In this document: one piece after another, positions 9,085 to 35,602 of the stretch
Layout: each line of letters starts with the position of its first letter
Numbering within the stretch: position 1 is the first letter of the stretch
Source of the DNA: Thermoleophilia bacterium
GTDB lineage: Bacteria; Actinomycetota; Thermoleophilia; BMS3ABIN01
Reading direction: 5' to 3'
Length of the DNA stretch: 36,010 bases
Assembly (NCBI GenBank): GCA_030650885.1
Contig: JAUSDE010000197.1
Coordinates: 1-36,010, forward strand
Notes under the pieces: generated by a model
Database searches by the model: none
What the model was told of the DNA's origin: nothing
Seen by the model: the letters and a program-made list of their open reading frames with translations, nothing else
Position numbers and translations under genes: made by a program

Positions 9085-9101
9085 GGGGAGCCAGGCCTCC
9101 T

Positions 9102-9185: not shown

Positions 9186-9440
9186 CCGGAACTGGCTTCT
9201 CCCCCACCAACCACGCGCCACGGTGTAGCCACTTATGTGACCAATACTTGTATCGGTCTTTACATAAACCCGCTTTATTGCCGTTGGACAAAGGGAGTAT
9301 GGTTTGCCGCCTCGGAAAGTGGACTGATTCAAGGTCAGGGTCGTTCTAATTATTGTGAAAAGTATCATGTATAGAATATCGATGCATCCAGCGGGGAGGA
9401 AATGTTAATCGAAAGCCCTTCAGAATAACCGGGGGAATTG

Positions 9441-12308: not shown

Positions 12309-12521
12309 TTTCCACTCCCAGTACCGGCGTTTTCATCCCCGACAGGGTCTGGCGCCTCCCCAAAAAAGTCTACTGGGATTACAGCCTTGAACTTGGCCTA
12401 TGCCCGAACCCTCAATAACTGATTCGGCCCGGGAGCGACTATATATAAGCCGGAGGGGGTGCTAACGCGGTTCAGGAGGGGGTCTACCCCTGTCCGAGAA
12501 CGGGCGTTCAGGGACTTTTAC

Positions 12522-15500
12522 TCAGGATGCGCGGGCGATCGCTATGCGGACGTTCCTGGTCGTATTTACCGTCTGCACGGTGGTTCCCGTGTAATAATAA
12601 CCGAGGATAGTGGTATAACTATCGCCGCGGCTGGCGCGATCCAGCGCACCATGACCGCTGAGGCCGACCCCATGGCCGTTCATGGCCATTCCGGCGCAGT
12701 CTGGGTCGGCAACGCTTTGCAGCCAGGGCCAGGTGCTGATGCCCCAGACCTCTTGTGCCGAACGGGTCCTGCCATCGGAGTTGGAGAAGTATGAGGTCAT
12801 GGCCACAGAACCGCCATACGTCACGACCTGCCCGGCGGTAGAGGTCACCGCTGTCGCCAGGTCGGGGAACCTTGCTTCCAACCCATAACCCTTGTACTGC
12901 TGGTCGTCGCCGTTACCATTACGGCTGTTTTTCAGGTGGAAGATCTCGCTGGCACCGTATTTTCCATTACGGTCCAGGTGCCAGACAGCGTAACTGCGGG
13001 CAGCCACGGTCATCGTCTTGAGAAAATCTGTGGGCACGCCGGAACTGGTCTCAGCGATTCCCCTCATGTAAAGCTCGAGGGGCAGCTCGTTAACTACCCA
13101 AACCGCATCTGACGCCGGCGAGTAACGCACCTCGATCGTTCCGCGGAAGAGGTTATCGTCCAGACCAGGATTCCAGCTGGGGATGTCATGATAAGAAGAA
13201 ACCTTCATGACGCCCCCATTGGCCGTAAACCTGATGTAAGAAGAGCCATTGAGAGAAACGCCGGGAGCCTGCAGGCTGTAGTTACCGCTGCTGTACCTGA
13301 CTGAAGCAACCTGGCCGGGAGCAATCGTTGCCAGCAGAGCCCCACCTGCATCTCGAGCCTCGTATGTCGAATCAGCAGTCACGGTGGTGGCAGTACCGGC
13401 AAATACCTGAGTGCCGGTAGTGGCGCTCCAGTAAATGTAGCCACCCTGGAAATCGCTGCGCCGGCCGGACCCGTAATCATATTCATCGGTGAGCGGCAGG
13501 CCTAATGCTGAGGTGGGACCACCATACTCGATGTACTTCACATAGATCCCACCATTGACCGTGTGGCCACCTGTAGTCGAAGACCAGTAGATGCGGCCGC
13601 GCTGGAAACCATGCTCCCTGGCTCCGGATACACCGGAGACATCAGTCTCACCGGAAACCGGCAAGCCAAGGGCGCCGGCGGGTCCGCCAAGCTGCAGATA
13701 TTTCCCGAGTATGCCGCCGTAGACTTCGTATGTGCCGGTGGTTGCGTGATAGTAGATGCGCCCTTGCTGGAAGTCGCTTTCCCTGCCGCCAGTGACGCCC
13801 GAAATATCGTACTCATCGGTCAAGGGCAGGCCCAGGAGCCCCGCGGGACCACCAAGTGCTAGATATTTAGTGAAGATAGCGCCCATCACAGCATGGCCGC
13901 CAGTGACCGGGGCCCAATAGATGCGCCCGCGCTGGAAGGCGCTCTCCCTGGCTCCGGATACTCCGCTTACGTCTCCCTCATCGCTGGTCGCGAGCCCGAG
14001 CGACCCGGCCGGGCCTCCGAACTGCGCATATTTGACCTGGATGCCTCCTATTACCGAATGAGCGCCGAGAGAAGCCTCCCAGGTGATCGTCCCTCGCTGC
14101 AGGTTCTGGGCCCTTCCATTAGCGGCGGCGTACTCATCGCTCGTCGGCATGCCATATGATCCCGCGGGGCCACCAAGCGCCAGATATTTCGTCAATATCG
14201 CACCGTAAACACCGTATACACCAACACCCGGCGCCCAGTAGATCCTGCCGTTTGTGAATTCGCTCTGGCGGCCTCCGGAAAGACCTGAAATATCGCTCTC
14301 GTCGCTGACGGGAAGGCCTAGTGGCGAGGCAGGTCCGCCCAGCGCAAGGTATTTCCCGAGAATCCCACCAATCACAGTTCGGGAACTGCCACTAGCGGAC
14401 CAATAGATCCGAGCCCGCTGAAAGTCGCCGGCTCTTGTACCGGCATAACCCGGCACGTCGTATTCGTCGGTCGTAGGGAAGCCATCACGGGCGACACCGC
14501 CATCACTTAGCAGCTTTGCGAGGATCGCCCCCGTCACGGCATGTGTGCCGACGCCGGGACACCAGTAAATCCTGCCGCCCGCAAAGTCGTTGCCGCGCCC
14601 CTCTGCCACGCCGTATTCATCACTTCTGGGCAAGCCCATGGATCCAGACGCACCGCCAAGCTGATTGTATTTTTCAAGGATGCCACCGTGGATCCAGTAA
14701 ACTCCGCCGGCGGGGTTCCATATGATGATGCCATTCTGGAAATCCTGGGCCTGCGCCTCAAGCGGGCACTGGCCACCGGGATTCGACAGGCAGTACTCAG
14801 CGCCTGTTGCCGGACCGGGCGCTCCGTTGAGGCTGTCCCACTTGACGCGGATGCCTGCGACTATCGGAATCGGTGAATAATTGATGTATGCCGCCGTCCT
14901 GAAATATGGCAGATAGGCGTAGAGAGAGTCTCCGGGGCAAGCAGTGTAATTTCCGGCAAGATCACGATGTCCCAGAATATTTGATGAGTAACCGCCGACC
15001 GGATAGCAGTTATCAGGACAACCTTCGTAATGAACGAAATAACTATTTCCGTATGGGTCGATCTGGTTCTGGTTGGCCTTTATCGTCATCAGTTCTGCGA
15101 CAGCGTTATAGATGGCGGTATTTATATCGTGCGCCTCGTAGTTGCCCATCACGGAGATTCCGACCGAACCGGTATTCCAACCCAAAGCATGAGCGCCGAC
15201 GACACCGTTGCCGCCCATCCGCCCCTCGTAGACCCGTCCGAGTTCGTCAACGAGGAAGTTGTAGCCGATATCTCCCCATCCGAGGCTGACAGCATGGTAT
15301 TGCCAGATGCCGAGCACTGTGGCAAACGGATTCGGATCATAGTTGGAGCCCGCCGTGTGATGAAGGATGATCTTCTTCGGCTGGGCATATTCGGAGGGCC
15401 AGTTCGCCTGTGTATAGGCGTCGTTGGCTCCCCACTGGGTTCTGGGGATGTAATTGAGGTCTGCGCTGGCCGAGGCCGGAGCGAGCGCGTCTCTGACGTT

Positions 15501-16115
15501 TTGACTAATATTCGACAGGGACAGCTGTGAGTTGTGATAGCCCCTGGAGTCGATGTAGCTGGCCGTCATCTTTGTGACTACCGGCACCTGGCCGGTTGGG
15601 CTGCTGGTCAGGTCGATGCGATACTGAAAAAATCGGCCGGCGTCCGTGAAAATCAGATCGCCTATCGTCTCGCCCGCGGATTTGGTGCTGGCAAAGTGGT
15701 TGGGTAATTCGTCGACTACTTCGCTGACCGGCTGCCAGTCACCCCACTGGCTGCCGTCCTGGCTGAAGCGGACTTCCACGGCTACGTCGGCTCCGGACGG
15801 CTGATCGGCTTTCCAGTGAAGCCCGAGGGCGTTGAAAGTGTAATCGGCCGCGATGGGTTCGGAGAGATAGCTGCCTTGAGGCTGTGCTGGCTGCAGAGAA
15901 AGCGCCAGCTCCCGGCTTCCAGCCACGGGAACGACGCCGGTGCCACTCGATTCGCCTGATTCAAAGTCGGTGCCGGTCTGGACAAAGTCACCGCTGATTG
16001 CTTCCGGGTGAGATGTCTGGCTGCCGAATCCGGGAAAAACAAAGAATGCGGCAATCAGAAGCAGAACCACGACTGCTGTTCCTGTGAAGTACTTATACCT
16101 GCCACGCATGATCAT
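12522..16115 (-). CDS. Membrane-anchored/secreted N-acetylmuramoyl-L-alanine amidase (Amidase_2/PGRP-type) + 9 LGFP repeats + SpoIID/LytB-type domain
   Basis: 1197-aa ORF with an N-terminal hydrophobic segment. The Amidase_2 block is KKIILHHTAGSNYDP...WGDIGYNFLVDELGRVYEGR...LGHRDLAGNYTACPGD (nt ~14928-15452). Nine repeats of the type I(L/F)xKYLxLGGPxGxLGLPxSDExDxSGVxGxRExxFxxGRIYW cover nt ~13401-14858. The C-terminal SpoIID-like block is LELYMRGIAETSSGVPTDFLKTMTVAARSYAVWH...VVTYGGSVAMTSYFSNSDGRTRSAQEVWG...GHGVGLSGHGA (nt ~12561-13163). Confidence 0.88.
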   Translation of the reverse strand: MIMRGRYKYFTGTAVVVLLLIAAFFVFPGFGSQTSHPEAISGDFVQTGTDFESGESSGTGVVPVAGSRELALSLQPAQPQGSYLSEPIAADYTFNALGLHWKADQPSGADVAVEVRFSQDGSQWGDWQPVSEVVDELPNHFASTKSAGETIGDLIFTDAGRFFQYRIDLTSSPTGQVPVVTKMTASYIDSRGYHNSQLSLSNISQNVRDALAPASASADLNYIPRTQWGANDAYTQANWPSEYAQPKKIILHHTAGSNYDPNPFATVLGIWQYHAVSLGWGDIGYNFLVDELGRVYEGRMGGNGVVGAHALGWNTGSVGISVMGNYEAHDINTAIYNAVAELMTIKANQNQIDPYGNSYFVHYEGCPDNCYPVGGYSSNILGHRDLAGNYTACPGDSLYAYLPYFRTAAYINYSPIPIVAGIRVKWDSLNGAPGPATGAEYCLSNPGGQCPLEAQAQDFQNGIIIWNPAGGVYWIHGGILEKYNQLGGASGSMGLPRSDEYGVAEGRGNDFAGGRIYWCPGVGTHAVTGAILAKLLSDGGVARDGFPTTDEYDVPGYAGTRAGDFQRARIYWSASGSSRTVIGGILGKYLALGGPASPLGLPVSDESDISGLSGGRQSEFTNGRIYWAPGVGVYGVYGAILTKYLALGGPAGSYGMPTSDEYAAANGRAQNLQRGTITWEASLGAHSVIGGIQVKYAQFGGPAGSLGLATSDEGDVSGVSGARESAFQRGRIYWAPVTGGHAVMGAIFTKYLALGGPAGLLGLPLTDEYDISGVTGGRESDFQQGRIYYHATTGTYEVYGGILGKYLQLGGPAGALGLPVSGETDVSGVSGAREHGFQRGRIYWSSTTGGHTVNGGIYVKYIEYGGPTSALGLPLTDEYDYGSGRRSDFQGGYIYWSATTGTQVFAGTATTVTADSTYEARDAGGALLATIAPGQVASVRYSSGNYSLQAPGVSLNGSSYIRFTANGGVMKVSSYHDIPSWNPGLDDNLFRGTIEVRYSPASDAVWVVNELPLELYMRGIAETSSGVPTDFLKTMTVAARSYAVWHLDRNGKYGASEIFHLKNSRNGNGDDQQYKGYGLEARFPDLATAVTSTAGQVVTYGGSVAMTSYFSNSDGRTRSAQEVWGISTWPWLQSVADPDCAGMAMNGHGVGLSGHGALDRASRGDSYTTILGYYYTGTTVQTVNTTRNVRIAIARAS

Positions 16116-24300: not shown

Positions 24301-25683
24301 ATGGAACTCAAACCAACCCTGAAGACATCCCCATCGGTAAGCCAGCAACTGGTGCTATCACCAAGGCTCTACCAGAGCCTGAGTATACTTCGGCTGGCCG
24401 CCCCCGAACTCCAGGAGCTTATACAAAAGGAGCTCGTGGAGAATCCGACTTTAGAGATCCCTGAGCCTTCCGAGATGGATCAAGAGCATGGCAACACCGC
24501 CGAGCGGGAGCTCTGGGACGATTACCTGGGTGCGCACCGAAGTGAGGGCGGTAGTTATTCTGGCAGTGGCGAAGCGACAGCACGCGGGGAACTGGCCGCA
24601 AGCCCTGTAACCCTCACCGAGCACCTGACCACGCAGCTCGAGCTGGAGAGCCTCGATGACAGGCGGCGGCGTATCGGGCTCGCCATCATCGGCAGCCTCG
24701 ATGAAGACGGCTATCTCCGCGAACCGTTAACAGCTCTGGCCAGGACCATCGACAGGCCTGAAAGCGAGATCGAGGAGGTGCTGGCCCTGGTGCAGCATTT
24801 CGATCCTCCGGGAGTCGCAGCTCGTGACCTCGCGGAATGCCTGGCCATCCAGCTTGAGCAGATGAATTCTGGCGATACCGCAATCAGCATCGCAAGGGAT
24901 TTTCTACCCAAGGTGGCGCGTGGCGCATATACAGACATTGCAAAGACCCTGTCGATCTCTACCGCCCGAGTGCGCAATGCTGTCAAACTCATCCGGAGCC
25001 TGTGCCCCTCACCGGGATCCCTTTTCGATAACAGCCCGCCCGCGTCGGCCATCATTCCTGATATATACGCGCGACTTGACCGCGGCGGTAAGGTGCGGGT
25101 ATTGGCCAACAGGGAGATCCTGCCTTCCCTGAGGTTGAGTCGGCTTTACAAAGAGATGGCCGAAGCCAGCAACGAGGGCGCTGACAGGGAAACCACCCTC
25201 TACGTCAAGGAAAAGATCCAGGAGGCCTCGCGGCTGATCCGGGATATCGACCACCGGCGTACGACGGTTACCAAGGTAGCCCGCGCCATCGCCGATTCCC
25301 AGCCGGAATTTTTCACACTGGGGCCCGAACACCTTCGTCCGCTGGGACTTGAAGAGATCGCTGAAAAGCTGGAAGTGCATCCATCAACTGTCAGCCGTGC
25401 CATACTGGGAAAATATATGAGTACACCTTATGGCATCTTTGAGTTCCGCTATTTCTTTTCTGCTGGCTATGCGACCTCTGATGGCGATGGATTGTCATCC
25501 ACAGCAGTAAAGAAACGGCTGGCGGGAATGATCTCAGCCGAGGATCACCGCCGCCCACTATCCGACCAGAAGCTGGCAAAACAACTTGGAGCAAGCGGTC
25601 TCAGCATTTCACGCCGAACGGTGGCCAAATACCGTGAAGCATTGGGAATCAGTGCTTCCTGGGAGCGCAAGCAGATCAAATGA
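24301..25683 (+). CDS. rpoN: RNA polymerase sigma-54 factor
   Basis: The ORF track starts at TTG 24205. The typical region I sequence MELKPTLKTSPSVSQQLVLSPRLYQSLSILRLAAPELQELIQKELVENPTLE starts at ATG 24301. The C-terminal RpoN box is ISRRTVAKYREALGI. The stop overlaps the next start (ATGA at 25680). Confidence 0.92.
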   Translation: MELKPTLKTSPSVSQQLVLSPRLYQSLSILRLAAPELQELIQKELVENPTLEIPEPSEMDQEHGNTAERELWDDYLGAHRSEGGSYSGSGEATARGELAASPVTLTEHLTTQLELESLDDRRRRIGLAIIGSLDEDGYLREPLTALARTIDRPESEIEEVLALVQHFDPPGVAARDLAECLAIQLEQMNSGDTAISIARDFLPKVARGAYTDIAKTLSISTARVRNAVKLIRSLCPSPGSLFDNSPPASAIIPDIYARLDRGGKVRVLANREILPSLRLSRLYKEMAEASNEGADRETTLYVKEKIQEASRLIRDIDHRRTTVTKVARAIADSQPEFFTLGPEHLRPLGLEEIAEKLEVHPSTVSRAILGKYMSTPYGIFEFRYFFSAGYATSDGDGLSSTAVKKRLAGMISAEDHRRPLSDQKLAKQLGASGLSISRRTVAKYREALGISASWERKQIK

Positions 25684-27242
25684 CAGATAGAGCAGATAAA
25701 CCCTGGGCCCAGATTCGCGATGCGGTGCTTGTCGCCGTAGCCATAGTCGTCATTACCTACTTCCATTATTATCCACTTCATCTCGAGTTCATCTCACATG
25801 ATAACTTCCATATACTGCTACGGCGTCTTTATTACATCCCCATCCTGTTCTCAGCATATCGTTTCGGCATCAAGGGCGGTCTTCTGGCTTCAATCTCGGT
25901 CTCTGTGCTTTTTATCCCCCATGCGATCATGACCATGGGCGGCCTTTTATTCGAAGGCGAAGCGCTTGAGAATCTCTTTGATATCCTGCTTTACAATATG
26001 GTGGCCTTGATTATGGGCGCCGTTGTCGAAGCCAAGCGCCGGCAAGCCCAGAGATATGAGGAAGTTTTAAAACTCAACAGGGAGATCGAGGACCGTGAGA
26101 CTGATATCCGCCGTATGAAAGCTTATACGGAAAGCATACTGAACAGCGTCAGCAGCGGCGTGATTTCCTGCGACAGGCGCGGAACAATCGTTACCGTGAA
26201 CCCGGAAGCCCGCAAGATGCTGGCGCGTCATGAAGAGGACCTGGTAGCCTTTCCACTCGTTCGTATATTCGAAAAACACGATGAACTCAATCGTGCTGCT
26301 GAGCTCGTGCTGTCGGGCAAACAGACTCGAGCGACCATGGAGACAGAACTCGAATCCGCAGGCCGGCCGATGCCCGTAGCCGTTCGTATCACGCCACACC
26401 GAAGCAGCGGTCAGACTGTCGGAATCGTCATCACTCTCGAGGATCTGACCGAGGTCAAGGATCTGACCGAGCAGCTGCTGCGCGCAGACAAGCTATCCGG
26501 GCTCGGAGAACTTGTAGCCGGCGTCGCCCATGAAGTACGCAATCCCCTGGGCGTGATCAAGGCCAGCGTCCAGATGCTCGAGCAGGAAATGGAGCAGGGT
26601 TGTCAGGATGCTGAACTGACCCACGTGATGGCGCAGGAGATCGACCGACTCGACTCGGTGGTTAACGCGCTGCTTGACTTCGGCAGGCCATCTCAGTCAC
26701 AGTTTGGGCCTGTGGATGCTCACCGGGTGCTCGGTGAGGTCGTTCTTTTGACCAAACAGTTTGCCAAGCAGCAGAACGTGACGGTTTTCGACGAAAGCCT
26801 GGAAGGGCTGCCGGAGATAAGGGCAGACGAGGACAGGTTGAAGCAGATTTTTGTTAACCTGATTTCCAATGCCATCCAGGCGATGCCGGATGGCGGAAAC
26901 CTGACGATCAGCGCGGCCGTAAGGGAAGGCTTCCTCAGAATCTCTTTTTCGGATACCGGCATCGGCATCTCTCCCGAGGAAAAGGACCGCATCTTCGATC
27001 CATTCCATACAACACGCGCTGAGGGCAGCGGCCTGGGCCTGTCCATCGTGCATCGCATAGTAGACGCTCACAACGGGTACATTACCGCGGAAAGTGAGCC
27101 GGGCACCGGCAGCACTTTCACTGTTGGCTTGCCGATGGCTTATCAGCCAGAAGGCGAAGCCGGCGATCGGGTTTCAACCGCGAGTGAAAGTACAGATGGA
27201 ACTGTTTTGACAACAATCGAGGAAGATACCGATGTCCACTAG
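25680..27242 (+). CDS. Sensor histidine kinase (polytopic N-terminal domain, PAS, HisKA, HATPase_c)
   Basis: 520-aa ORF. The N-terminal ~120 aa are hydrophobic. PAS-like block: ILNSVSSGVISCDRRGTIVTVNPEARKML. H-box VAGVAHEVRNPLGVI, N-box FVNLISNAIQAM, G-boxes FSDTGIGI and GSGLGLSIV. Confidence 0.9.
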   Translation: MTDRADKPWAQIRDAVLVAVAIVVITYFHYYPLHLEFISHDNFHILLRRLYYIPILFSAYRFGIKGGLLASISVSVLFIPHAIMTMGGLLFEGEALENLFDILLYNMVALIMGAVVEAKRRQAQRYEEVLKLNREIEDRETDIRRMKAYTESILNSVSSGVISCDRRGTIVTVNPEARKMLARHEEDLVAFPLVRIFEKHDELNRAAELVLSGKQTRATMETELESAGRPMPVAVRITPHRSSGQTVGIVITLEDLTEVKDLTEQLLRADKLSGLGELVAGVAHEVRNPLGVIKASVQMLEQEMEQGCQDAELTHVMAQEIDRLDSVVNALLDFGRPSQSQFGPVDAHRVLGEVVLLTKQFAKQQNVTVFDESLEGLPEIRADEDRLKQIFVNLISNAIQAMPDGGNLTISAAVREGFLRISFSDTGIGISPEEKDRIFDPFHTTRAEGSGLGLSIVHRIVDAHNGYITAESEPGTGSTFTVGLPMAYQPEGEAGDRVSTASESTDGTVLTTIEEDTDVH

Positions 27243-28575
27243 CATTCTTGTCGTCGACGATGAAAAGAACATGCGTTTTGTCGTAGGCAGGGCACTATCA
27301 GGCGCAGGCCATGAAATACGCGAGGCTGCCTGCGGCGAAGATGCACTCGAGGCTTTCGATGTTGCCATCCCTGATCTGGTAATCCTCGACCAGCGCATGC
27401 CGGGAATGGGTGGCCTGGCCACTCTCAGCGAGATCAAGAAATCTTACCCGGACATGCCGGTCATCATGTTGACTGCCCACGGGAATGTCGAAAGCGCCGT
27501 GCAGGCCATGAAGGCCGGAGCCACAGAATATCTGACCAAACCCTTTGACGTGGAGGAGCTCAAGCTCACGGTCGCCAAAGCTCTCAAAGTCGGCAACCTC
27601 GTTCGCCAGGTTGATTATCTGCGCGGCGAACTCGATCGCGATTATGATACGTCGGGCATCGTGGGAGACAGCCAGGCAATGAAGGACGTCCTCGAAACTG
27701 TCGCGCGCGTGGCCGCATCCGATGCCAACGTGATGGTCTACGGAGAAAGCGGCACGGGCAAGGAGCTGATCGCCCGGGCACTCCATGAACAAAGCAACCG
27801 CAACGGCAAGCCATTCATTCAGCTCAGTTGCGCGGCATTGCCAGAAACGCTCCTTGAGAGCGAACTCTTCGGCTACGATAAAGGTGCTTTTACCGGAGCC
27901 GTTGACTCGAAACCCGGCCGCTTCGAACTGGCCGACTCCGGTACGCTCTTCCTTGACGAGATAGGGGACATCTCCCTCACCGTCCAGGTCAAACTGCTGC
28001 GCGTGCTCGAACAGATGAGCTTCGAAAGGCTCGGCGGCTCCAAGACGATAAATGTAGACATCAGACTTATCGGCGCCACAAACCGCGACCTTCCCGCAAT
28101 GATAAGGGAAGGAGAATTCCGCGAGGATCTTTTTTACCGTCTGAACGTCATCCCGATCAACCTGCCTCCGCTGCGCGATCGTCGCGGCGATATCAAACTG
28201 CTGGTCCGGCATTTTCTGAAGCGATTCTCAAATGACAAGGAGATGTCGGCTGAAGCCCTCAGACTGCTGGAAGATTATCACTGGCCAGGTAACGTGCGCG
28301 AGCTTCAAAATGCAATCGAAAGGGCGACCATTCTTAGCCGGGAAAAGGTCATGGTCCCCGCCGACCTTCCAGCCGAGATCAGACAGCGCGCTTCGCTTTC
28401 CAGCGATACTATTAGTCTGCCCGCAGAAGGAGTCGCGCTGGAAAAAGTGGAACGCGAGCTGATCATGCAGGCACTGCAGCGCACTGGTGGCAATCGCACA
28501 AAAGCGGCCGAATTGCTGGGAATAAGCCGGCATACATTGCTGTACCGAATAGAAAAATATAGGCTGGGTCAATGA
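27232..28575 (+). CDS. Sigma-54-dependent response regulator (NtrC family bEBP: REC + AAA+ + Fis-type HTH)
   Basis: 447-aa ORF overlapping the kinase gene by 11 nt. REC domain (LVILDQRMPGMGG), Walker A GESGTGKE, the sigma-54 contact loop GAFTGA (YDKGAFTGAV), and C-terminal HTH NRTKAAELLGISRHTLLYRIEKY. Confidence 0.92.
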   Translation: MSTSILVVDDEKNMRFVVGRALSGAGHEIREAACGEDALEAFDVAIPDLVILDQRMPGMGGLATLSEIKKSYPDMPVIMLTAHGNVESAVQAMKAGATEYLTKPFDVEELKLTVAKALKVGNLVRQVDYLRGELDRDYDTSGIVGDSQAMKDVLETVARVAASDANVMVYGESGTGKELIARALHEQSNRNGKPFIQLSCAALPETLLESELFGYDKGAFTGAVDSKPGRFELADSGTLFLDEIGDISLTVQVKLLRVLEQMSFERLGGSKTINVDIRLIGATNRDLPAMIREGEFREDLFYRLNVIPINLPPLRDRRGDIKLLVRHFLKRFSNDKEMSAEALRLLEDYHWPGNVRELQNAIERATILSREKVMVPADLPAEIRQRASLSSDTISLPAEGVALEKVERELIMQALQRTGGNRTKAAELLGISRHTLLYRIEKYRLGQ

Positions 28576-28666
28576 CCGCCTTGACCCTGACTACTGACAC
28601 AGGTATTCTGATTAACAATAATATGAACGACTTTAGCCCCATTGCCAGGGAGCCGAAGAAGGCAAA

Positions 28667-29869
28667 ATGAAACGACTCGGACTCCTCTACCTGGCCGCTC
28701 AGAACCTGCGACGCAAGCCTTTTCGAAGCTTTGTCACTATTGCGATCGTAGCTCTGGCCGCCGGCACGCTATTCTCTGCAACCCTGCTGATCGGAAGCGT
28801 TGATCGCAGCCTGGAAGTAGGGATGGAGCGTCTGGGCGCCGATTTGCTGGTCGTGCCTGAAGGTTACCAGGAGTCCGGACAGGCAGCGCTGATCACCGGA
28901 GCGCCTACCAGCTTCTATATGGATGGCAGCATCCTCGACCAGGTGAAGACGGTCCCCGGGGTCGATCAGGCGTCTCCGCAACTCTTTATCGAATCCATGG
29001 TTTCTTCTCAATGCTGCACGGGCCACGTACAGCTGGTTGGCTATGATCCATCAAGTGATTTTGTTGTCAGCCCCTGGCTGAGAGACAATCTCCAGCGGAC
29101 GCTTAGCAAGGACGAAGTCGTGATTGGTTCGCTAATCCTTGCAAACAAGGGCGAACAGGTGCATTTCTACGGCCATGACTTCGATGTCGCCGGTGTCCTT
29201 GACGCCACCGGAATGGGCGTCGATGAGAGCGTCTTCATGAGCCTGGATACCGCTTATCTGATGGCTAGGGAATCCGCCCAGGTGGCTGAATCGCCGCTGG
29301 ACGTCAAACCAGGCCAGATCTCATCCGTGCTGGTGAAGATGGCGGACGGCACCAATGTAGACCAGTTGACTCAAAGGATAAAGACGAATGTTCCAGGAAC
29401 CACTGTCATCACTGCAAACGAGTTAAGCCGCTCGGTGACTGATCGGATCTCCGGCTTCAAGCGCGGTTTTATCGCAGTGGATGCGATCGTATGGATAATG
29501 TCGCTTCTGACTATAGCTGCTATTTTTTCCATGATCGTCAATGAGCGGCAGAGGGAGATCGGCCTCCTAAGGGCAATGGGATCCAGCCGGCAATTCGTAT
29601 TCCGCCTTATGCTGACTGAAGCGGTCTTCCTGACCGCGGCCGGCGGCATCGCAGGAATATTTGTTGGGGGCGCCGCCCTGTTTATCTTCAAGGCGATCAT
29701 CACTTCCAGCCTTGGTATACCTTATCTATGGCCTCCGGTTCTGACTTTCGTGAAGCTTATGGCTATCACCATGATACTGGCGATAGTCAGTGGTGCTGTA
29801 GCCTCTTTATATCCAGCGCTTAGCTCCAGCAGGCTGGAGCCATATGCAGCTATCAGGCGGGGCGAGTGA
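28667..29869 (+). CDS. ABC transporter permease, FtsX/MacB-like (extracytoplasmic domain between TM1 and TM2)
   Basis: 400-aa ORF. The order is N-terminal TM, a ~230-aa soluble region, then three C-terminal TM segments with ...RQREIGLLRAMGSSRQFVF... (FtsX-type). Confidence 0.82.
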   Translation: MKRLGLLYLAAQNLRRKPFRSFVTIAIVALAAGTLFSATLLIGSVDRSLEVGMERLGADLLVVPEGYQESGQAALITGAPTSFYMDGSILDQVKTVPGVDQASPQLFIESMVSSQCCTGHVQLVGYDPSSDFVVSPWLRDNLQRTLSKDEVVIGSLILANKGEQVHFYGHDFDVAGVLDATGMGVDESVFMSLDTAYLMARESAQVAESPLDVKPGQISSVLVKMADGTNVDQLTQRIKTNVPGTTVITANELSRSVTDRISGFKRGFIAVDAIVWIMSLLTIAAIFSMIVNERQREIGLLRAMGSSRQFVFRLMLTEAVFLTAAGGIAGIFVGGAALFIFKAIITSSLGIPYLWPPVLTFVKLMAITMILAIVSGAVASLYPALSSSRLEPYAAIRRGE

Positions 29870-29876
29870 CGCGCTC

Positions 29877-30560
29877 ATGACTACCGACGCAATGATCGTT
29901 CTAAAGGATATCAGCAAGACCTATAAGGTCGGCCCCAGTACAGTGCGAGCTGTCGAGAAAGTCGACCTTGAGATACCCCGTGGGCAGATGGTCTCTATCG
30001 TGGGGCACTCCGGCTCGGGAAAGACAACTCTTCTGAGCCTCATTGGAGGTCTTACCAAACCGAGTGACGGCCGCGTGATAATCGACGACATCAACATCTG
30101 GACGCTCTCAGATAAAGAGATGTCACAGCTCAGAAATGAGAAGATCGGATTCTCTTTCCAGTTTGCCAGCCTGTTCCCCACGCTTAACGCGATCGACAAT
30201 GTCAGGCTGCCGGCGACTTTCGGCAGTAAAAATGAATCCGACCATGATCGCGCCATCGAGCTTCTGAATCTCGTAGGCCTGGAAGACAGGATCTATTCAT
30301 ACCCTGGCCAGCTTTCAGGTGGCGAGCAGCGGCGGGTAGCCCTGGCGCGCACCTTGATGAACAAGCCGCGGCTCATCCTTGCTGATGAACCAACTGGTGA
30401 CCTTGATGAGGATACCGAGGCTGACATCCTGGAGATCTTCCGCACGATCAACGGCGAAGGCGTGACGATTGTCATCGTCACCCACTCCCGGGCGGTCGCC
30501 TCGCAGGCCCAGAGGATGCTGCGCATGCATCGCGGCCTGCTCTCCGAGGAGGAAGAATGA
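29877..30560 (+). CDS. ABC transporter ATP-binding protein (MacB/LolD-like)
   Basis: The ORF track starts at 29844, inside the permease gene. MTTDAMIVLKDISKTY starts at ATG 29877, 8 nt after the permease stop. Walker A GHSGSGKTTLL, signature LSGGEQRRVALARTL, Walker B ILADEPTGDLD. Confidence 0.88.
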   Translation: MTTDAMIVLKDISKTYKVGPSTVRAVEKVDLEIPRGQMVSIVGHSGSGKTTLLSLIGGLTKPSDGRVIIDDINIWTLSDKEMSQLRNEKIGFSFQFASLFPTLNAIDNVRLPATFGSKNESDHDRAIELLNLVGLEDRIYSYPGQLSGGEQRRVALARTLMNKPRLILADEPTGDLDEDTEADILEIFRTINGEGVTIVIVTHSRAVASQAQRMLRMHRGLLSEEEE

Positions 30561-30895
30561 GACGGAATCTCGACATAGCCAGGACAGGTCTGTACACTTC
30601 AGGCGTCATGATCATCCTGCTGGCCATATCTTTGTTCATCATCGCTGGATGTGGGTCACAGGCTGGTATCGGCCAGAGCCAATATGAGCAGGTCCAGAAA
30701 GGCATGACCCTGGACGATGTAGAGGGTCTGCTGGGGCAACCAGACCGCAGCCATCGCACAGGTCCTACAAATAATCCCAGCATCATCTGGTATTACAATA
30801 AGTCAGAAGCCGAAGGCCTGGTGCGCATCGGCTTCGTCAATGCCAAAGTGGACAGCCTTTCACCCTACGATCTCAGCGTCAATCTCGACGAATAG
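30557..30895 (+). CDS. Small lipoprotein (SmpA/OmlA-like fold suggested)
   Basis: 112-aa ORF with an ATGA overlap onto the ATPase stop. Lipobox LFIIAGCGSQ, then YEQVQKGMTLDDVEGLLGQPDR, typical of small BamE/SmpA-like lipoproteins. Confidence 0.7.
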   Translation: MRRNLDIARTGLYTSGVMIILLAISLFIIAGCGSQAGIGQSQYEQVQKGMTLDDVEGLLGQPDRSHRTGPTNNPSIIWYYNKSEAEGLVRIGFVNAKVDSLSPYDLSVNLDE

Positions 30896-30915
30896 CAGCC
30901 CGGCCCCACCGCTTC

Positions 30916-30947
30916 ACCGCTTATGTGCCAAATGCCACACAAGCGGT
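30916..30947. promoter_or_regulatory. 32-bp dyad containing TGT-N10-ACA; candidate bEBP enhancer (UAS), alternatively a terminator hairpin
   Basis: ACCGCTT-a-TGTG-ccaaatgc-CACA-c-AAGCGGT has 11 of 12 arm positions complementary. Its centre is ~170 bp upstream of the GG of the 31100 promoter. Confidence 0.5.
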
Positions 30948-31099
30948 AGCAGAAGGCTCAGTTAGGGGCCGAATCCCACCGTTTCACACGGCTTTTTTTC
31001 TCCCAGCCCATTTCTCCGAATTACCGTATAAGCTAATAATCCACGCTTTTGCAGGCTTTTTTATATTTAATGCCGCAAATGCATGGTTTTGTCGTAGAT

Positions 31100-31115
31100 T
31101 GGCACATTCCTTGCT
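31100..31115 (+). promoter_or_regulatory. Sigma-54 (-24/-12) promoter
   Basis: TGGCAC-attcc-TTGCT is an exact match to the TGGCAC-N5-TTGCW consensus. It is intergenic, ~180 nt upstream of ATG 31297, and rpoN and a bEBP are encoded just upstream. Confidence 0.8.
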
Positions 31116-31126
31116 TCATATACAGG

Positions 31127-31185
31127 CAGCAAATGACTTCATGCCCTTCTAATCGGTCTGGGTCCCAGGTTATTGCTGATTTTTT
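31127..31185 (+). promoter_or_regulatory. Terminator-like stem-loop plus U6 at the very start of the sigma-54 transcript (possible attenuator)
   Basis: CAGCAAAUGAC (31127-31137) pairs with GUUAUUGCUG (31169-31178): 10 bp with one bulged A and one G-U. This encloses the inner palindrome CUGGG-U-CCCAG and is followed by A-UUUUUU-G (T run 31180-31185). Confidence 0.35.
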
Positions 31186-31244
31186 GCTCCGGCGGGTGAA
31201 CCGGAGCCTGATTTTACGAGAACCCCAGTATCTTGTAAGCGGAT

Positions 31245-31281
31245 TTTCCTGACGGGGTCACTGGGGGACCCCGTCAGGAAA
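31245..31281 (+). promoter_or_regulatory. Perfect 15-bp stem hairpin 16 nt upstream of the start codon
   Basis: TTTCCTGACGGGGTC (31245-31259), loop ACTGGGG, GACCCCGTCAGGAAA (31267-31281). There is no U tract on either strand, so it is a leader structure rather than a classical terminator. The right arm contains CAGGAAAT, which is repeated at the real RBS/ATG (31291-31298). Confidence 0.6.
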
Positions 31282-31296
31282 TAACTACCCCAGGAA

Positions 31297-32373
31297 ATGA
31301 AAGACACGACTAAAAAAAAGATCTTCCTTTTCAGCGTCGCATCAGTGGCGCTGATCGCGTGCGCCTGGATAGCCATACCCACTGCTTCGATCAGCCCCGG
31401 CGATATCGAGAAAGCCGTTCCCCTTGGCCAGCCTGTTTCCATAAACTCTTCGCCGCTTGCAGCAATTGGAAAAGTGGCCGTCTACGCCGATGACCAGCAG
31501 CTGGCCCTGGAGTACAACCTCGGAAGCGGAGACCTCAGCCGCGATTTCCAGCTCAAACCGGGACAAAGCATACGTATTGAAGCGAAAATATCTTCCGTAA
31601 TCGGACTCACTCGCGAATTCACCTCTACTTTCACTACGGTGGAACCGGTGACCATGGCCGATATTTCAGTAAATGGCTCAAGGATGGAGCCTGGACAAAA
31701 GATCCCGCCACAGCCGACGCTGACATTCTCGTTCAGTAAACCGTTGAGCTCGGCTTCCGTTTCTCTCGACGGCAGTGACGCAATCGAACTACAGATAGAC
31801 CCGGAAGATCCTACCGTTGCCACTTTGCCACCGACAGTCTCGTTGAAGCAGGGTGCGACCCATCTGATGAACCTGACGGCGACGGCAGTCGATACGGCGA
31901 CACTGGATTCTCGTGAAGTCCGAGCCAGTGTCGTAAGGCCGCTTTCCCTTTACGGCAGCGTGACCACAGTCGACGGACAGACAAAGATCGAGCTCGATTC
32001 CACGGCTGCTTTCGGTGATCCTGCCGCGGTTAGGGCAGCCCTTTCGACTACACTCCCGAGCCCCGAGGTCGTAGTGGATAAACAAAAGATCCTGATCACC
32101 TGCGCGAGCCTTGAACCGGGCAACGATTACACGATAAAGCTGGCGAGCGCTCTGGGCGGCGACGGCAGCTTTCTGGAAGCGCCGCTTGAGATGAATGTGA
32201 CTTACCGCTCTGATCCATCAGCGGTTTCACCATCAGGAAACACCGGTTACCGCGGTTATGTATATACCAGCGGCGGCACTTCGTCAGGCTCTGCCTCAGG
32301 TAGCGGAGGAGCTCCAGCTGATTCGGGACCACCTCCGGGATGGCCATCATGTTGTCCCTGGCCGCCTCAATAA
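31297..32373 (+). CDS. Membrane-anchored/secreted Ig-like (Big_5/SbsA-like) domain protein with Gly/Ser/Pro-rich, Cys-Cys-containing C-terminus
   Basis: 358-aa ORF with an N-terminal TM/signal segment IFLFSVASVALIACAWIAI and beta-rich segments (e.g. KIPPQPTLTFSFSKPLSSASVSLDG). The tail is SGGTSSGSASGSGGAPADSGPPPGWPSCCPWPPQ. It is the first gene downstream of the sigma-54 promoter at 31100. Confidence 0.75.
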   Translation: MKDTTKKKIFLFSVASVALIACAWIAIPTASISPGDIEKAVPLGQPVSINSSPLAAIGKVAVYADDQQLALEYNLGSGDLSRDFQLKPGQSIRIEAKISSVIGLTREFTSTFTTVEPVTMADISVNGSRMEPGQKIPPQPTLTFSFSKPLSSASVSLDGSDAIELQIDPEDPTVATLPPTVSLKQGATHLMNLTATAVDTATLDSREVRASVVRPLSLYGSVTTVDGQTKIELDSTAAFGDPAAVRAALSTTLPSPEVVVDKQKILITCASLEPGNDYTIKLASALGGDGSFLEAPLEMNVTYRSDPSAVSPSGNTGYRGYVYTSGGTSSGSASGSGGAPADSGPPPGWPSCCPWPPQ

Positions 32374-32379
32374 AATGAG

Positions 32380-34833
32380 ATGAAGTTGTCTGGCAAAACC
32401 CGAAATTTCCTGTCGGTACCGTTAGCCCTGTTGACGGCCATATCGCTGCTCACCGCCGTGGCGCCGATTTCCCTGTCTGCAACAACTGGAAGCGCAGCCA
32501 CGGAAGTCTATACGGGTAATGATCCATTGCCACCGGCTGCAGATACTCCGCCAGCCGCACCTGCCGTAGATGTCACTTCCGGGAGCGAAAACCCGGGGGT
32601 CTCCACAGTAATTGACAAGCTACCAGTGTATTCGTCCACACCTGACGCTGTTATCAGCCTGCAGCTCGTGACCATGGCGGATACGACAGCACCCCTGATT
32701 ACCGGATATTCCCCTGCAAACGACGCAATAACGGGTTCATCGGTGGCCATAAGCGCCAGCTTTTACGATCCCGACCCTTCAGTCGGCATCAAGCTAAGCA
32801 CAGGCATGATACATGTGGATAACAGGCACCAGCCGGGCACAGTGGTCACGGAATCCGGAATATCCAACCTGAAATCGGGCCTGACCGAAGGCCAGCACAA
32901 GCTGGAGGCTTTTATCTGCGACAACAACTACAACTGCAGTGTGGCAACCTGGTATATCAATGTGGACACGACTGCACCGGTTATCTCCAACGCCCAGCCG
33001 ACCGGGACGATTAATTCCACAAGCGCGACAATCGCGGCATCTTTCACTGACGGCGCCGGAACCGGAGTCGATGTCACTTCGGCCAACGTGGTCATTGACG
33101 GCGTCAACATCGATTCATCATGCGGGATATCCGCTGACGGCGTCAGCTGTGATTCTGGCGTACTTGCGGAGGGTAACCACGATTTGCAGGTTGAAGTCTA
33201 TGATCTGGCAGGCTATAGGGCAGTGAGAAACTGGAGCTTCAGTGTCGACCTGGCCGCAATCGCCATAACCGGCCAGACACCAGCTCACAACAGCTGGCAA
33301 ACCTCCGCTTCTCCATCAATCGAGGCGGTTTTTCACCAGGCTGGCAGTGGCTTAATCGACACATCTTCCATCACGATGCTTCTGGACGGTGTGGATGTCA
33401 GCGCCGATGCCGGGCGCTCGTCCGGTGGAATCGTCTTCCTTCCGACATCGCAATTATCCCAGGGGGGACACACGATGATCGTCGCCCTGAGAGATGATCT
33501 GGGGCACGAGGGCAGGTGTGAGTGGAGTTTCACAGTCGACTCTCTGGCTCCTCAGATCCTTAATCAAACACCATCTGGAACTGCGGGCAACCAGCCGACC
33601 ATTTCCGCTCTCATGGCCGACACTGGCAGCGGTATTGATTCAGCTTCGGTCAATCTCACGGTGGATGGTATCAATGCTACCGACTCATCTGACGTGACTG
33701 TTAATCAGGTTACCTACATTCCACCTGAATCCCTTACCCCCGGCCCACACAGCGTTCAATTAGCAGTAAGAGATCTGGCCGGCAACCAGCAGACTTCGGC
33801 ATGGAATTTCAGCGTTTCTCAGCCTCCTGCTCCATCGCGTCCGGCCATCACGCCTCCCGTCGCAGGCCAGATGACCGTGGCGGAGTACTGGCAAAGTTAC
33901 AGTTCGATTTCCGGCCCTGAAGGCAACTGGATCATCTCCGGTTTTATGGCCTTCCCCAGCACTTACTACCTCCCGTGGTACGATTCCGGCCAGACCAATG
34001 GTCCCGTAAAGGACGAACTTGTTATTCGCAACGATGGCGCCGGCAGCGCGATAGTCAACGTCCTTCTTGGCGGCAAGGTCAAGTGGCAGGGAAAAGTCGA
34101 GGAAGGCGCAAGCGAGACCATTCACATTCCTGAAACCACCGGTGGTCCCGTGAAGATAATCTGCCCCTCTGGGCAGCCTCTGGAAGTTACCCATCGCTTG
34201 ACCGGAGAGAACGGCTTTGTCAGCGAAACTCCGGCATTAGCTGACACCGACATGGAATCTGTGCTGCTCCTGCCCTGGTACGAGACTCGCTCAACGGATG
34301 AAGGAAGCTCTTCGCTTGTTATCGCCAACGCCGGAAGTGTGGATGCGTCGGTCGATGTATATGTCGGCGACCCGGAAAAACCGGAGTCACTGAAAGGTCA
34401 CTATAACATCGGGCCTGATTCCGCAGCTAGAACGGTCCTTGCTGATACAAGCGGCGGCCCGCTTCGAATAATCTCCACAAATAACCAGCCTCTGCTCGCT
34501 GAGGTGCAGTTGGTCAACCGGGATACCATTTCGGAAACGATCGCTACCGGCATTTCACATGTGGCTGACAGTTTCAAATTCGAGGCTACCAACAGCAGCA
34601 CTCACCGGGCTTCAAAACTGATGGTTGGAAACGGTAGCGACCGGGACCTGCGGATTGAGGTCAGAATCGGCGATGAGCTCCTTCGTGATCCAGAAAATAC
34701 CGATAATGACTTTTTTACGATTCCCCGTCAGGGATTTGAATCAATCGCTTTGAACCCCGCTCCGGGTAAGTCAGTCGAAATTATCTGTACCGACTGTATG
34801 TATGGCGAAGGGCTCGTAGTTTCCAGGTTTTAG
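32380..34833 (+). CDS. Large secreted surface protein: 4 tandem Ig-like (Big_5-like) repeats + 3 tandem C-terminal beta-sandwich-like modules
   Basis: 817-aa ORF with a signal peptide ending ...ISLSATTGSAA. Four ~95-aa repeats begin DTTAPLITGYSPAND, DTTAPVISNAQPTGT, DLAAIAITGQTPAHN and DSLAPQILNQTPSGT. Three ~90-aa modules begin YYLPWYDSGQ, LLLPWYETRS and FKFEATNSS, each ending in a G-x-(V/L)-(K/R/E)-I-(I/C) strand. Confidence 0.82.
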   Translation: MKLSGKTRNFLSVPLALLTAISLLTAVAPISLSATTGSAATEVYTGNDPLPPAADTPPAAPAVDVTSGSENPGVSTVIDKLPVYSSTPDAVISLQLVTMADTTAPLITGYSPANDAITGSSVAISASFYDPDPSVGIKLSTGMIHVDNRHQPGTVVTESGISNLKSGLTEGQHKLEAFICDNNYNCSVATWYINVDTTAPVISNAQPTGTINSTSATIAASFTDGAGTGVDVTSANVVIDGVNIDSSCGISADGVSCDSGVLAEGNHDLQVEVYDLAGYRAVRNWSFSVDLAAIAITGQTPAHNSWQTSASPSIEAVFHQAGSGLIDTSSITMLLDGVDVSADAGRSSGGIVFLPTSQLSQGGHTMIVALRDDLGHEGRCEWSFTVDSLAPQILNQTPSGTAGNQPTISALMADTGSGIDSASVNLTVDGINATDSSDVTVNQVTYIPPESLTPGPHSVQLAVRDLAGNQQTSAWNFSVSQPPAPSRPAITPPVAGQMTVAEYWQSYSSISGPEGNWIISGFMAFPSTYYLPWYDSGQTNGPVKDELVIRNDGAGSAIVNVLLGGKVKWQGKVEEGASETIHIPETTGGPVKIICPSGQPLEVTHRLTGENGFVSETPALADTDMESVLLLPWYETRSTDEGSSSLVIANAGSVDASVDVYVGDPEKPESLKGHYNIGPDSAARTVLADTSGGPLRIISTNNQPLLAEVQLVNRDTISETIATGISHVADSFKFEATNSSTHRASKLMVGNGSDRDLRIEVRIGDELLRDPENTDNDFFTIPRQGFESIALNPAPGKSVEIICTDCMYGEGLVVSRF

Positions 34834-34835
34834 TC

Positions 34836-34861
34836 CTGTTCCAGACACGACCTGGAAACAG
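34836..34861 (+). terminator. Hairpin just after the stop of the 817-aa gene
   Basis: CTGTTCCAG-acacgac-CTGGAAACAG is a 9-bp stem with one extra A. No clear U tract follows. Confidence 0.3.
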
Positions 34862-34887
34862 TTCCAAAAGCTGATCCGTAGTACCAC

Positions 34888-34918
34888 TGTGGCATTTAAC
34901 ACACCCGATGTGCCAAAT
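34888..34918. promoter_or_regulatory. TGT-N10-ACA dyad plus ATGTGCCAAAT box; candidate bEBP enhancer (UAS)
   Basis: TGTG-gcatttaa-CACA sits at 34888-34903, with its centre ~167 bp upstream of the GG of the 35061 promoter. The 11-mer ATGTGCCAAAT at 34908-34918 is identical to 30923-30933. Confidence 0.45.
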
Positions 34919-35060
34919 CCTGTAACATTTGTAGGATTTCCCCGGAACAAACCTCGCGCTGGCCTGAAACCCGCATCTTCACTCGTCGTAAAAGTCGGTG
35001 ATCAAGGCCAACACGCTGAATTGCAGCAATTATTTCCCATTTTCATCTAACTGGATTACT

Positions 35061-35076
35061 TGGCATAAAACTTGCT
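35061..35076 (+). promoter_or_regulatory. Sigma-54 (-24/-12) promoter
   Basis: TGGCAT-aaaac-TTGCT. It is intergenic, ~70 nt upstream of ATG 35144, and shares the 11-mer CTTGCTTCATA with the promoter at 31100. Confidence 0.75.
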
Positions 35077-35143
35077 TCATAAAACGTATACAACCAGCAA
35101 TCCTGCAAACTCTTACATGATTGAAGGGAGGGAATTGAAATCA

Positions 35144-35602
35144 ATGAACAGCATAACAAGAACCATATTAGGCGCCGGCGTCATCGCCCTGGGAGGACTC
35201 ATCGCCATCACGCCACGCTACATTCTTCCCGTTTGTGAGCATTACGGAGTGCGCATGGATATAGGAATGGGCAATACCCTTCCCATGTCATGCTATTACA
35301 CGGAAAGAGCATCGCTCTTGATCGGTGTGATAATCGCCGTCATCGGCATCGCCATTATCATTGCCAGCCGCCCTGCAACACTGCGGCCACTGGCATTGAT
35401 ACTTGCGGGCGCCGGGGCCGCGACGATACTCATTCCGACCTGGCTCTTTCCCGTCTGTCACAACGCCGACATGCACTGCAATCAGGGCGCCAAGCCGGCA
35501 TTGATAGTACTGGGGATCATGGCGATGATCACTGCCGTCTGGCTTGGCATATCGTCAGCTGCTCCCGAAGAGATCTCGAAAAGCGCCGCCGAGACAAAAT
35601 AA
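35144..35602 (+). CDS. Small polytopic membrane protein with paired Cys motifs (DUF4418-like)
   Basis: The ORF-track start (TTG 35072) lies inside the sigma-54 promoter. ATG 35144 follows a GGGAGGG SD. MNSITRTILGAGVIALGGLIAITPRYILPVCEHYG...MSCYY...LFPVCHNADMHCNQGAKPAL shows four hydrophobic segments and a repeated PVC...M-x-C pattern. I recall this pattern from DUF4418 but cannot verify it here. Confidence 0.7.
   Translation: MNSITRTILGAGVIALGGLIAITPRYILPVCEHYGVRMDIGMGNTLPMSCYYTERASLLIGVIIAVIGIAIIIASRPATLRPLALILAGAGAATILIPTWLFPVCHNADMHCNQGAKPALIVLGIMAMITAVWLGISSAAPEEISKSAAETK

Follow-up and report, generated by a model that had tools for sequence, protein, structure and literature searches.

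The NtrC glnAp2-type system of enterobacteria combines two dyad sites, located on the same face of the DNA and over 100 bp ahead of a -24/-12 promoter, with an activator built of a receiver domain (REC), an AAA+ domain with the GAFTGA motif and a Fis-type helix-turn-helix (HTH), whose gene adjoins that of the partner histidine kinase. NtrC-type activators usually have their sites arranged as such a pair on one face of the DNA. Among the activator families, the AtoC type is the most widespread (Francke et al., 2011; PMC3162934), and single-activator sigma-54 systems are found in Borrelia and Chlamydia (PMC3162934). The Actinobacteria have been reported to be without a sigma-54 system (Francke et al., 2011; PMC3162934). 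Then, how would a sigma-54 locus of this phylum compare with the systems described?

The locus considered here lies in a stretch of 36,010 nucleotides from a Thermoleophilia bacterium, which was analysed over its whole length and is called the window below. The glnAp2-type features listed above are shared by this locus. However, the site is TGTGGCAWWTGCCACA here and TGCACC-N5-GGTGCA for NtrC, the sites are located further upstream (at about -170 from the -24 element), the targets are Ig-like surface proteins rather than nitrogen assimilation genes, and the host phylum differs, with rpoN placed within the cluster. The regulator also scores below the cut-off of the NtrC equivalog (467 vs. 559 bits). 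The best-scoring named families are those of AtoSC and ZraSR, that is, AtoS and ZraS as the nearest NCBIfam families of the kinase, each below its cut-off, and AtoC (525 bits) and ZraR (422 bits) for the regulator, again below the curated cut-offs (714 and 760 bits), while the sensor domain, the targets and the DNA site are unrelated to those of AtoSC and ZraSR. The likeness to Borrelia and Chlamydia is the small size of the system, in which apparently few promoters are served through one activator; the difference is that rpoN, the kinase, the activator and the targets are all found here in one cluster.

We propose that the region 30896-31296 is, very probably, a classical enhancer-dependent sigma-54 control region worked by the adjacent two-component regulator, as predicted from its sequence and that of its relatives. 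The sigma-54 mechanism itself would be ordinary, textbook enhancer-dependent activation; consequently, all that is new in the promoter and the enhancer is the DNA motif of an NtrC-family regulator not characterised so far. The unusual aspects are the host phylum, the self-contained cluster that includes rpoN, and an undescribed leader RNA. In fact, many Actinomycetota MAGs share a conserved set of rpoN, the activator and the target promoters, despite the reported lack of the system in the phylum (PMC3162934). The wider view, to which we give slightly less than an even chance, is that the locus would represent a self-contained sigma-54 regulon of uncultured Actinomycetota, complete with rpoN, a single kinase, a single activator and two to three target promoters, together with a new leader RNA of ~170-280 nt gating the main operon. 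Such a circuit, compact and fully specified, could be rebuilt in vitro.

Gene cluster and its relatives

The window encodes, in a single co-directional cluster, every component that a sigma-54 system requires, and the genes referred to below are as follows.

24301..25683, + strand: rpoN (sigma-54), 460 aa, with the ATG at 24301 (the mechanical ORF begins at TTG 24205)
25680..27242, + strand: sensor histidine kinase with membrane N-terminus, PAS, HisKA and HATPase domains (Pfam)
27232..28575, + strand: NtrC-family response regulator/enhancer-binding protein, the putative enhancer binder, with REC, AAA+ sigma-54 interaction (Sigma54_activat) and HTH_8 domains (Pfam)
28667..30895, + strand: ABC-lipoprotein operon upstream of promoter A, judged by sequence not to be sigma-54 dependent, composed of the next three genes
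28667-29869, + strand: MacB/FtsX-type permease (Pfam)
29844-30560, + strand: ABC ATPase (Pfam)
30557-30895, + strand: lipoprotein with lipobox IAGC and TAG stop at 30893-30895
31297..32373, + strand: 358-aa membrane-anchored protein with three Ig-like domains, first gene of the promoter A operon
32380..34833, + strand: 817-aa secreted protein with a Big_13 Ig-like domain, second gene, 6 nt past the 358-aa gene
35144..35602, + strand: DUF4418 membrane protein (Pfam), first gene under promoter B

The rpoN product contains the Pfam domains Sigma54_AID, Sigma54_CBD and Sigma54_DBD, passes the TIGR02395 equivalog (409 bits; cut-off 277) and carries region I as well as the RpoN box SRRTVAKYR; its orthologues are also 460 aa long. 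It belongs to a clade of many MAG proteins with 45-87% identity, some of which are already auto-annotated as sigma-54. The nearest named relatives outside the clade, from Clostridia and other Bacillota, show ~37-40% identity, with a gap in between. In the regulator, the phospho-acceptor D52, the Walker A motif GESGTGKE, GAFTGA and the Fis-type HTH are all present, and its top solved relatives are the NtrC-family proteins of Aquifex (4l4u and 1ny5).

The 358-aa protein has no Pfam or NCBIfam family match. Its AlphaFold2 model (mean pLDDT 84.7) consists of an N-terminal membrane helix, three Ig-like domains and a disordered linker, and resembles Ig-like domain arrays according to Foldseek; the C-terminal GPPPGWPxCCPWPPQ is conserved. 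Since the targets are Ig-like surface proteins beside a MacB-type transporter, the locus fits the idea of sigma-54 controlling the cell exterior. In addition, LGFP cell-wall-anchor repeats, which are linked with Actinobacteria, occur in five proteins of the first half of the window, and fit an actinobacterial origin.

For the 358-aa protein, 47 homologues were found, and the named ones all come from MAGs called Thermoleophilia, Actinobacteria or Gaiellales. The comparison set was made up of 26 related loci, titled Thermoleophilia, Actinomycetes or Gaiellales. Synteny of the entire cluster extends over at least 15 Actinomycetota MAG contigs, and the conserved gene order of the related loci runs from Dus, an ABC-2 transporter, rpoN, the kinase, the regulator, the FtsX permease, the ABC ATPase and the lipoprotein to the 358-aa protein, the 817-aa protein, DUF4418, a second Big_13 protein, Rho and transaldolase. 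In this syntenic cluster, module A, that is, promoter A with its upstream sites, precedes the 358-aa gene, and module B precedes the DUF4418 gene. The second Big_13 protein, of 487 aa, follows the DUF4418 gene in related loci, and its start is visible at the end of the window. Based on the conserved gene order, the cluster looks like a stable chromosomal feature of the lineage. The activator gene was found in every related locus for which the upstream region was available. The divergent locus L006, in which a PpiC-like gene links the 358-aa gene to the ABC operon, is without a regulator gene within 17.7 kb and also without the promoter and enhancer of module A.

Predicted sigma-54 promoters and their upstream sites

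The elements of the two modules are listed below.

31100..31115, + strand: promoter A, TGGCAC-N5-TTGCT, TGGCACattccTTGCT = TGGCACATTCCTTGCT, exact -24/-12 match
35061..35076, + strand: promoter B, TGGCAT-N5-TTGCT, TGGCATaaaacTTGCT = TGGCATAAAACTTGCT, exact -24/-12 match
30924..30939, unstranded: predicted enhancer site 1 of module A, TGTGCCAAATGCCACA, 15 of 16 positions as in the clade consensus TGTGGCAWWTGCCACA, centre 169.5 bp before the -24 GG
30945..30960, unstranded: predicted enhancer site 2, module A, GGTAGCAGAAGGCTCA, offset from site 1 by 21 bp, or two helical turns, with the left half conserved and the right half degenerate
31049..31062, unstranded: T-tract element TTGCAGGCTTTTTT between enhancer and promoter, maybe a bending site
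34888..34903, unstranded: predicted enhancer site 1 of module B, TGTGGCATTTAACACA, centre 166.5 bp upstream of the -24 GG
34909..34924, unstranded: predicted enhancer site 2, module B, TGTGCCAAATCCTGTA, offset from its site 1 by 21 bp

An earlier reading of the window, made from the sequence alone, had described the element at 31100-31115 as an exact sigma-54 consensus, and this description holds. The pattern TGGCAY-N5-TTGCW has two exact matches in the 36-kb window, promoters A and B, against 0.07 expected, and only two further matches, both intragenic, appear when one mismatch is allowed, a number at chance level. With a clade-specific weight matrix, promoters A and B score 28.4 and 26.9 bits, respectively, and the next best position in the window scores 12.0 bits. 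TGGCAC-N5-TTGC is also found upstream of the orthologous gene in 8 of the 10 related loci fetched first. When 21 loci and the window (264 kb) are taken together, all 30 exact promoters lie on the gene strand before the 358-aa or the DUF4418 gene. The five loci fetched later obey the same rule, with no minus-strand match, and add a third module and operon in L023 and L024.

The conservation reaches past the search pattern, as TTGGCACG-N3-CTTGCTT. In all module A promoters, it is followed by an A/T-rich spacer of constant length (9 nt, 31116-31124) and then by the conserved GGCAGCAA. Transcription from promoter A is predicted to start at ~G31126, and the conserved helix of the leader starts exactly at this predicted +1. 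Given the elements, the presence of rpoN in the window, the orientation and the conservation, which are all the features that a sequence can put to the test, the element is a sigma-54 promoter by prediction. In the window scan, neither a promoter nor an enhancer match occurs upstream of rpoN or of the ABC operon, and autoregulation was therefore rejected. A sigma-70-like CTGACA-17-AATAAT was seen at 28594-28622, before the ABC operon.

Upstream of the promoters, a 16-bp palindrome with the consensus TGTGGCAWWTGCCACA is present in all 33 non-identical promoter modules of the syntenic contigs (at least 12 of 16 positions). The distance from the centre of site 1 to the -24 GG ranges from 117.5 to 205.5 bp, with a mode of 169.5 bp, and falls between 165.5 and 172.5 bp in 22 of the 33 modules; it is not strictly fixed, and the differences are not all whole helical turns. 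At a threshold of 13 of 16 positions, 245 kb of sequence contain 24 matches, every one of them located 100-200 bp ahead of an exact promoter, and not a single strong match falls elsewhere. At 14 of 16 positions, there are two matches in the window, against 0.015 in shuffles. Note that the positions of site 1 were picked by their best match to the consensus, and its information content is thereby inflated. The columns that define the conservation of site 2 played no part in locating the sites: its left half and A-rich centre, GTGGCAaAA (columns +23 to +31), carry 0.9-2.0 bits per column in the 33 modules. The offset of site 2 is exactly 21 bp downstream, or 20 bp in one lineage.

The features known from NtrC-type enhancers, such as a GAFTGA activator, dyad sites ~80-200 bp upstream on one face of the DNA, and their co-occurrence with the promoters and the activator, are found together here. 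The core at 30924-30939 with the second site at 30945-30960 is the predicted enhancer, to which the regulator would bind. The suggestion that the adjacent regulator (27232-28575) acts from the upstream dyad at a looping distance has thus gained comparative support, and the arrangement does recur, as had been noticed, at 34888-35076, that is, site 1 of module B with promoter B.

The earlier reading had also compared the dyad with NifA-type enhancers. The core does share the formal TGT-N10-ACA pattern and the position upstream of a sigma-54 promoter with these. However, the generic pattern occurs 5 times in the window, against 6.4 +/- 2.7 in shuffles, which is not above chance, so the pattern carries no weight on its own. 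Furthermore, the activator has a receiver domain rather than a GAF domain (REC-AAA+-HTH_8), no nif genes are present, and the nifA model reaches 393 bits with the regulator (cut-off 529), aligning with the central domain alone. The identity as a NifA-type enhancer was therefore rejected, given the chance-level pattern, the receiver-domain activator and the Ig-like surface targets.

Could another protein recognise the palindrome? Other enhancer-binding proteins or regulators that recognise TGTG-N8-CACA, encoded elsewhere in the genome, may act at the sites. For example, a regulator of the CRP/FNR type, which has TGTG-N8-CACA sites, would bind the palindrome in place of the adjacent activator and modulate or bend the promoter region. 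The core agrees with the TGTGA-N6-TCACA geometry at its four outermost bases, and Actinobacteria commonly have regulators of the CRP family. However, positions 5-7 and 10-12 (GCA/TGC) are conserved and unlike the CRP consensus, the strong matches are restricted to the regions upstream of sigma-54 promoters near the activator gene, and a 21-bp spacing of paired sites at about -170 is what enhancer-binding proteins typically show. In addition, the recognition helix of the activator, LLGISRHTLLYRIEKY, is unchanged across all 18 loci that include the regulator, and the cluster is without a CRP-type gene. We regard a regulator of this kind as a very unlikely binder, and the NtrC-family regulator of the cluster as the probable one.

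Between the enhancer and promoter A, the A/T-rich run that had been pointed out is present (TTTTTTATATTTAATG at 31057-31072). The T-tract element TTGCAGGC is located at -64 to -50 in module A of the window and of L022, L023, L025, L014 and L019, with variants in L001 and L003, and may mark a bend or the site of an architectural protein. Its 7-mer is frequent by itself (57 in 295 kb), and consequently the support that it gives is modest.

The 32-bp dyad and the proposed mechanism

The feature that the sequence-only reading had taken as the site upstream of promoter A is larger than the palindrome, and the quoted sequences were found in place.

30916..30947, unstranded: 32-bp dyad ACCGCTTaTGTGccaaatgcCACAcAAGCGGT, 11 of 12 arm positions complementary, starting 21 nt past the lipoprotein TAG, centre 169.5 bp from the -24 GG

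The part of this dyad that stands as a site is the 16-bp core (30924-30939). The outer arms, ACCGCTT (30916-30922) and AAGCGGT (30941-30947), are peculiar to this window and missing in the closest relatives (L022, L023 and L025, with 72-76% protein identity), and the flank columns carry 0-0.2 bits across the 33 modules. The 32-bp dyad as a functional unit was therefore rejected. The left arm forms one of the two units of a tandem CACCGCTT CACCGCTT repeat at 30907-30922.

Then, could the dyad be mainly an RNA hairpin that ends or stabilises the ABC-lipoprotein transcript, its distance to the promoter being incidental? It begins 21 nt past the lipoprotein stop, the full 32 nt fold to -17.4 kcal/mol, a stability matched by 1% of the flank shuffles (z = -3.0), and extended arms occur also in a few other modules (L001 A and L003 B), extra flank stability being seen in three or four. 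However, the mean z over 26 modules is -0.64, no U-tract follows the dyad (AGCAGAAGG does), and the terminator scan omits it. Among the 26 modules, the pairs of the outer arms are unpaired in 40-60%, and, inside the palindrome, pairs 5/12 and 6/11 fail to form in 12-13 modules, with few compensating changes. Across the loci, anything between 20 nt and more than 4 kb separates the element from the upstream stop, whereas its spacing to the promoter is mostly 166-172 bp. A true RNA hairpin nearby, P4 of the leader described below, behaves in the opposite way, with compensatory changes in 11 of 14 pairs and pairing in 99% of the cells. Taken together, the results on flanks, pairing, shuffles, terminators and distances point to a conserved function at the DNA level. 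Since the arms are window-specific and the two halves change independently of each other, with no compensation, the reading as a conserved RNA hairpin or terminator finds no support and was rejected, and the probability left for a dyad that serves mainly as RNA is minimal.

Consequently, the idea that the dyad folds as a hairpin ending the ABC operon finds no support as a conserved function. It may, at most, apply to this genome only, as a dual use in which the core is the enhancer and the outer arms form a U-less terminator or a stabilising hairpin for the ABC operon. The flank-shuffle z in the window and the origin of the left arm through tandem CACCGCTT duplication would be consistent with it, and hairpin terminators without U-tracts have been proposed in Actinobacteria. 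However, the arms are not conserved even at 72-76% protein identity, and one or two such extensions among 26 modules could be chance. Such an extra role is unlikely, with roughly one chance in seven.

The core as an enhancer of the adjacent regulator is the reading that we prefer. Based on the established behaviour of the NtrC family, the PAS histidine kinase would phosphorylate the adjacent regulator (27232-28575), and dimers of the latter would bind the DNA, one at the strong palindrome (30924-30939) and another at the weaker site (30945-30960). The bound dimers would form an AAA+ ring, and the DNA between enhancer and promoter would loop, for which the T-tract element (31049-31062) may be of assistance. 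The ring would then touch the closed complex that RNA polymerase forms at 31100-31115 with the sigma-54 encoded in the cluster, and ATP hydrolysis would open the promoter, with transcription beginning at ~31126. The transcript would comprise the structured leader of ~170 nt first, and then the two Ig-like cell-surface proteins. The regulator would also drive the second module (34888-35076), before the DUF4418 membrane-protein operon. We also infer dependence on rpoN.

Leader RNA of the promoter A operon

The region between the predicted start and the 358-aa gene contains the following parts.

31125..31296, + strand: conserved structured leader RNA, 172 nt from the predicted start to the ATG, based on conservation and covariation
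31127-31139 with 31167-31178, + strand: 5' helix, from direct reading and folding, enclosing the invariant CGGUCUGGGU (31154-31163)
31186-31207, + strand: P2, from RNAalifold
31214-31238, + strand: P3, from direct reading and folding, with CCCCAG (31223-31228) in the loop
31245-31281, + strand: P4, from RNAalifold, with CUGGGG (31261-31266) in the loop
31288-31293, + strand: second CCCCAG box, adjoining the Shine-Dalgarno AGGA
31157-31162 with 31289-31294, + strand: predicted long-range helix of UCUGGG with CCCAGG, from RNAalifold, overlapping the Shine-Dalgarno AGGA

In the RNAalifold structure, which is composed of the long-range helix, P2 and P4, 96.7% of the cells pair, against 89.6% in shuffles, and none of 500 shuffles reaches the observed value. 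For P3, all 7 pairs show compensatory changes on the model-fitted alignment, which leans towards the structure of the model. The loop CUGGGG of P4 complements each of the two CCCCAG boxes, and a kissing loop or alternative pairings may therefore form; all these boxes are invariant, so covariation has no hold on a kissing-loop or pseudoknot pairing.

The leader shares with translational riboswitches and other structured leaders the multi-helix 5' form, the covariation, the invariant loops and a predicted helix over the Shine-Dalgarno sequence. It differs from them in having no Rfam family: no relevant match was obtained at E <= 1 for the window or at E <= 0.1 for L009, L014, L019 and L022. Combining four or more helices with mutually complementary CUGGGG and CCCCAG loops and the predicted Shine-Dalgarno helix, the leader may belong to a new riboswitch-like class, and its covariation makes it a candidate for a new class of cis-regulatory RNA.

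As for the way in which the leader would act, the P2 hairpin as an attenuator terminator is unsupported, the T-run after P2 being confined to the window and L022. Since this T-run is not conserved, control of translation seems likelier than attenuation of transcription, and the leader probably gates the translation of the 358-aa gene. A covariance model was built for the 3' domain of the leader; it matches once in each locus, four non-seed loci included, and in every case immediately before the 358-aa gene.

The sigma-54 cluster in Actinomycetota and its variants

The Actinobacteria were reported to be without sigma-54 in 2011 (PMC3162934). A syntenic cluster consisting of rpoN, one activator gene and two or three sigma-54 promoters is present in many Actinomycetota MAGs (related loci L001-L026), and the closest named relatives of its RpoN outside the clade belong to Clostridia and other Bacillota, with ~37-40% identity. 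The corresponding features are as follows.

Window 24301-35602: whole sigma-54 cluster
Window 24301-25683 (+): rpoN
L023 16214-16229: third promoter, TGGCACGCTTCTTGCT
L023 ~16035-16050: enhancer of the third module, CGCGGTATATGCCACA, 171.5 bp upstream of the promoter

The same third promoter-plus-enhancer module occurs in L024, at 9679. In both loci it is located 3' of the second Big_13 gene and 5' of genes for small proteins, which have no recorded Pfam match; the counterpart of this region would lie past the end of the window.

A natural variant is found in L006 (8898-10001), where a PpiC/SurA-like gene separates the lipoprotein gene from the 358-aa gene and the spacer measures only ~40 nt. 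Neither a promoter nor an enhancer module was found in L006, and no activator gene occurs within 17.7 kb; rpoN is there, but inverted and downstream.

Sequence elements around the enhancer and promoter of module A

Two further elements were identified at module A, the promoter and enhancer ahead of the 358-aa gene.

Window 30907-30922: tandem 8-bp duplication, CACCGCTT CACCGCTT
Window 31049-31062: TTGCAGGCTTTTTT, between enhancer and promoter

The duplication generates the left outer arm of the 32-bp extended dyad around the enhancer site, and that dyad is specific to the window. Among the nearer relatives, module A keeps the element TTGCAGGCTTTTTT at -64 to -50, and CCYGCAAA-like sequences occupy a similar place in module B, ahead of the DUF4418 gene; TTGCAGGCTTTTTT may be where the DNA bends, or where an architectural protein binds.

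A candidate leader RNA and the protein encoded downstream

Window 31125-31296 (+): conserved structured leader RNA, ~170-280 nt across loci
Window 32329-32370: GPPPGWPxCCPWPPQ, C-terminus of the 358-aa protein

The leader RNA is located immediately 5' of the 358-aa gene in the window as well as in L001-L003, L005, L007, L009-L012, L014-L017, L019, L022, L023 and L025. Its 5' helix encloses the invariant CGGUCUGGGU and is followed by P2, P3 (loop CCCCAG) and P4 (loop CUGGGG). CCCCAG recurs 3' of P4, where it adjoins the Shine-Dalgarno sequence. P3 and P4 show strong covariation, and an Rfam search of the window, L009, L014, L019 and L022 gave no match. The leader is a candidate new cis-regulatory RNA. 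A mechanical 90-aa ORF (31170-31442, minus strand) overlaps both the leader and the 5' end of the 358-aa gene; this ORF is probably spurious, because the conservation there is RNA-structural and on the plus strand.

The C-terminal motif, preceded by a disordered Gly/Ser-rich linker, is nearly invariant, includes two adjacent cysteines and was found in no other protein of the window. The motif may act as a signal for sorting or modification.

The LGFP array

Five consecutive genes (1929-16115, minus strand) encode large secreted proteins with LGFP cell-wall-anchor repeats, whose fusion partners differ: BNR/Ycf48-like repeats, CAP, glycoside hydrolase 26, thermolysin M4, and amidase plus SpoIID.
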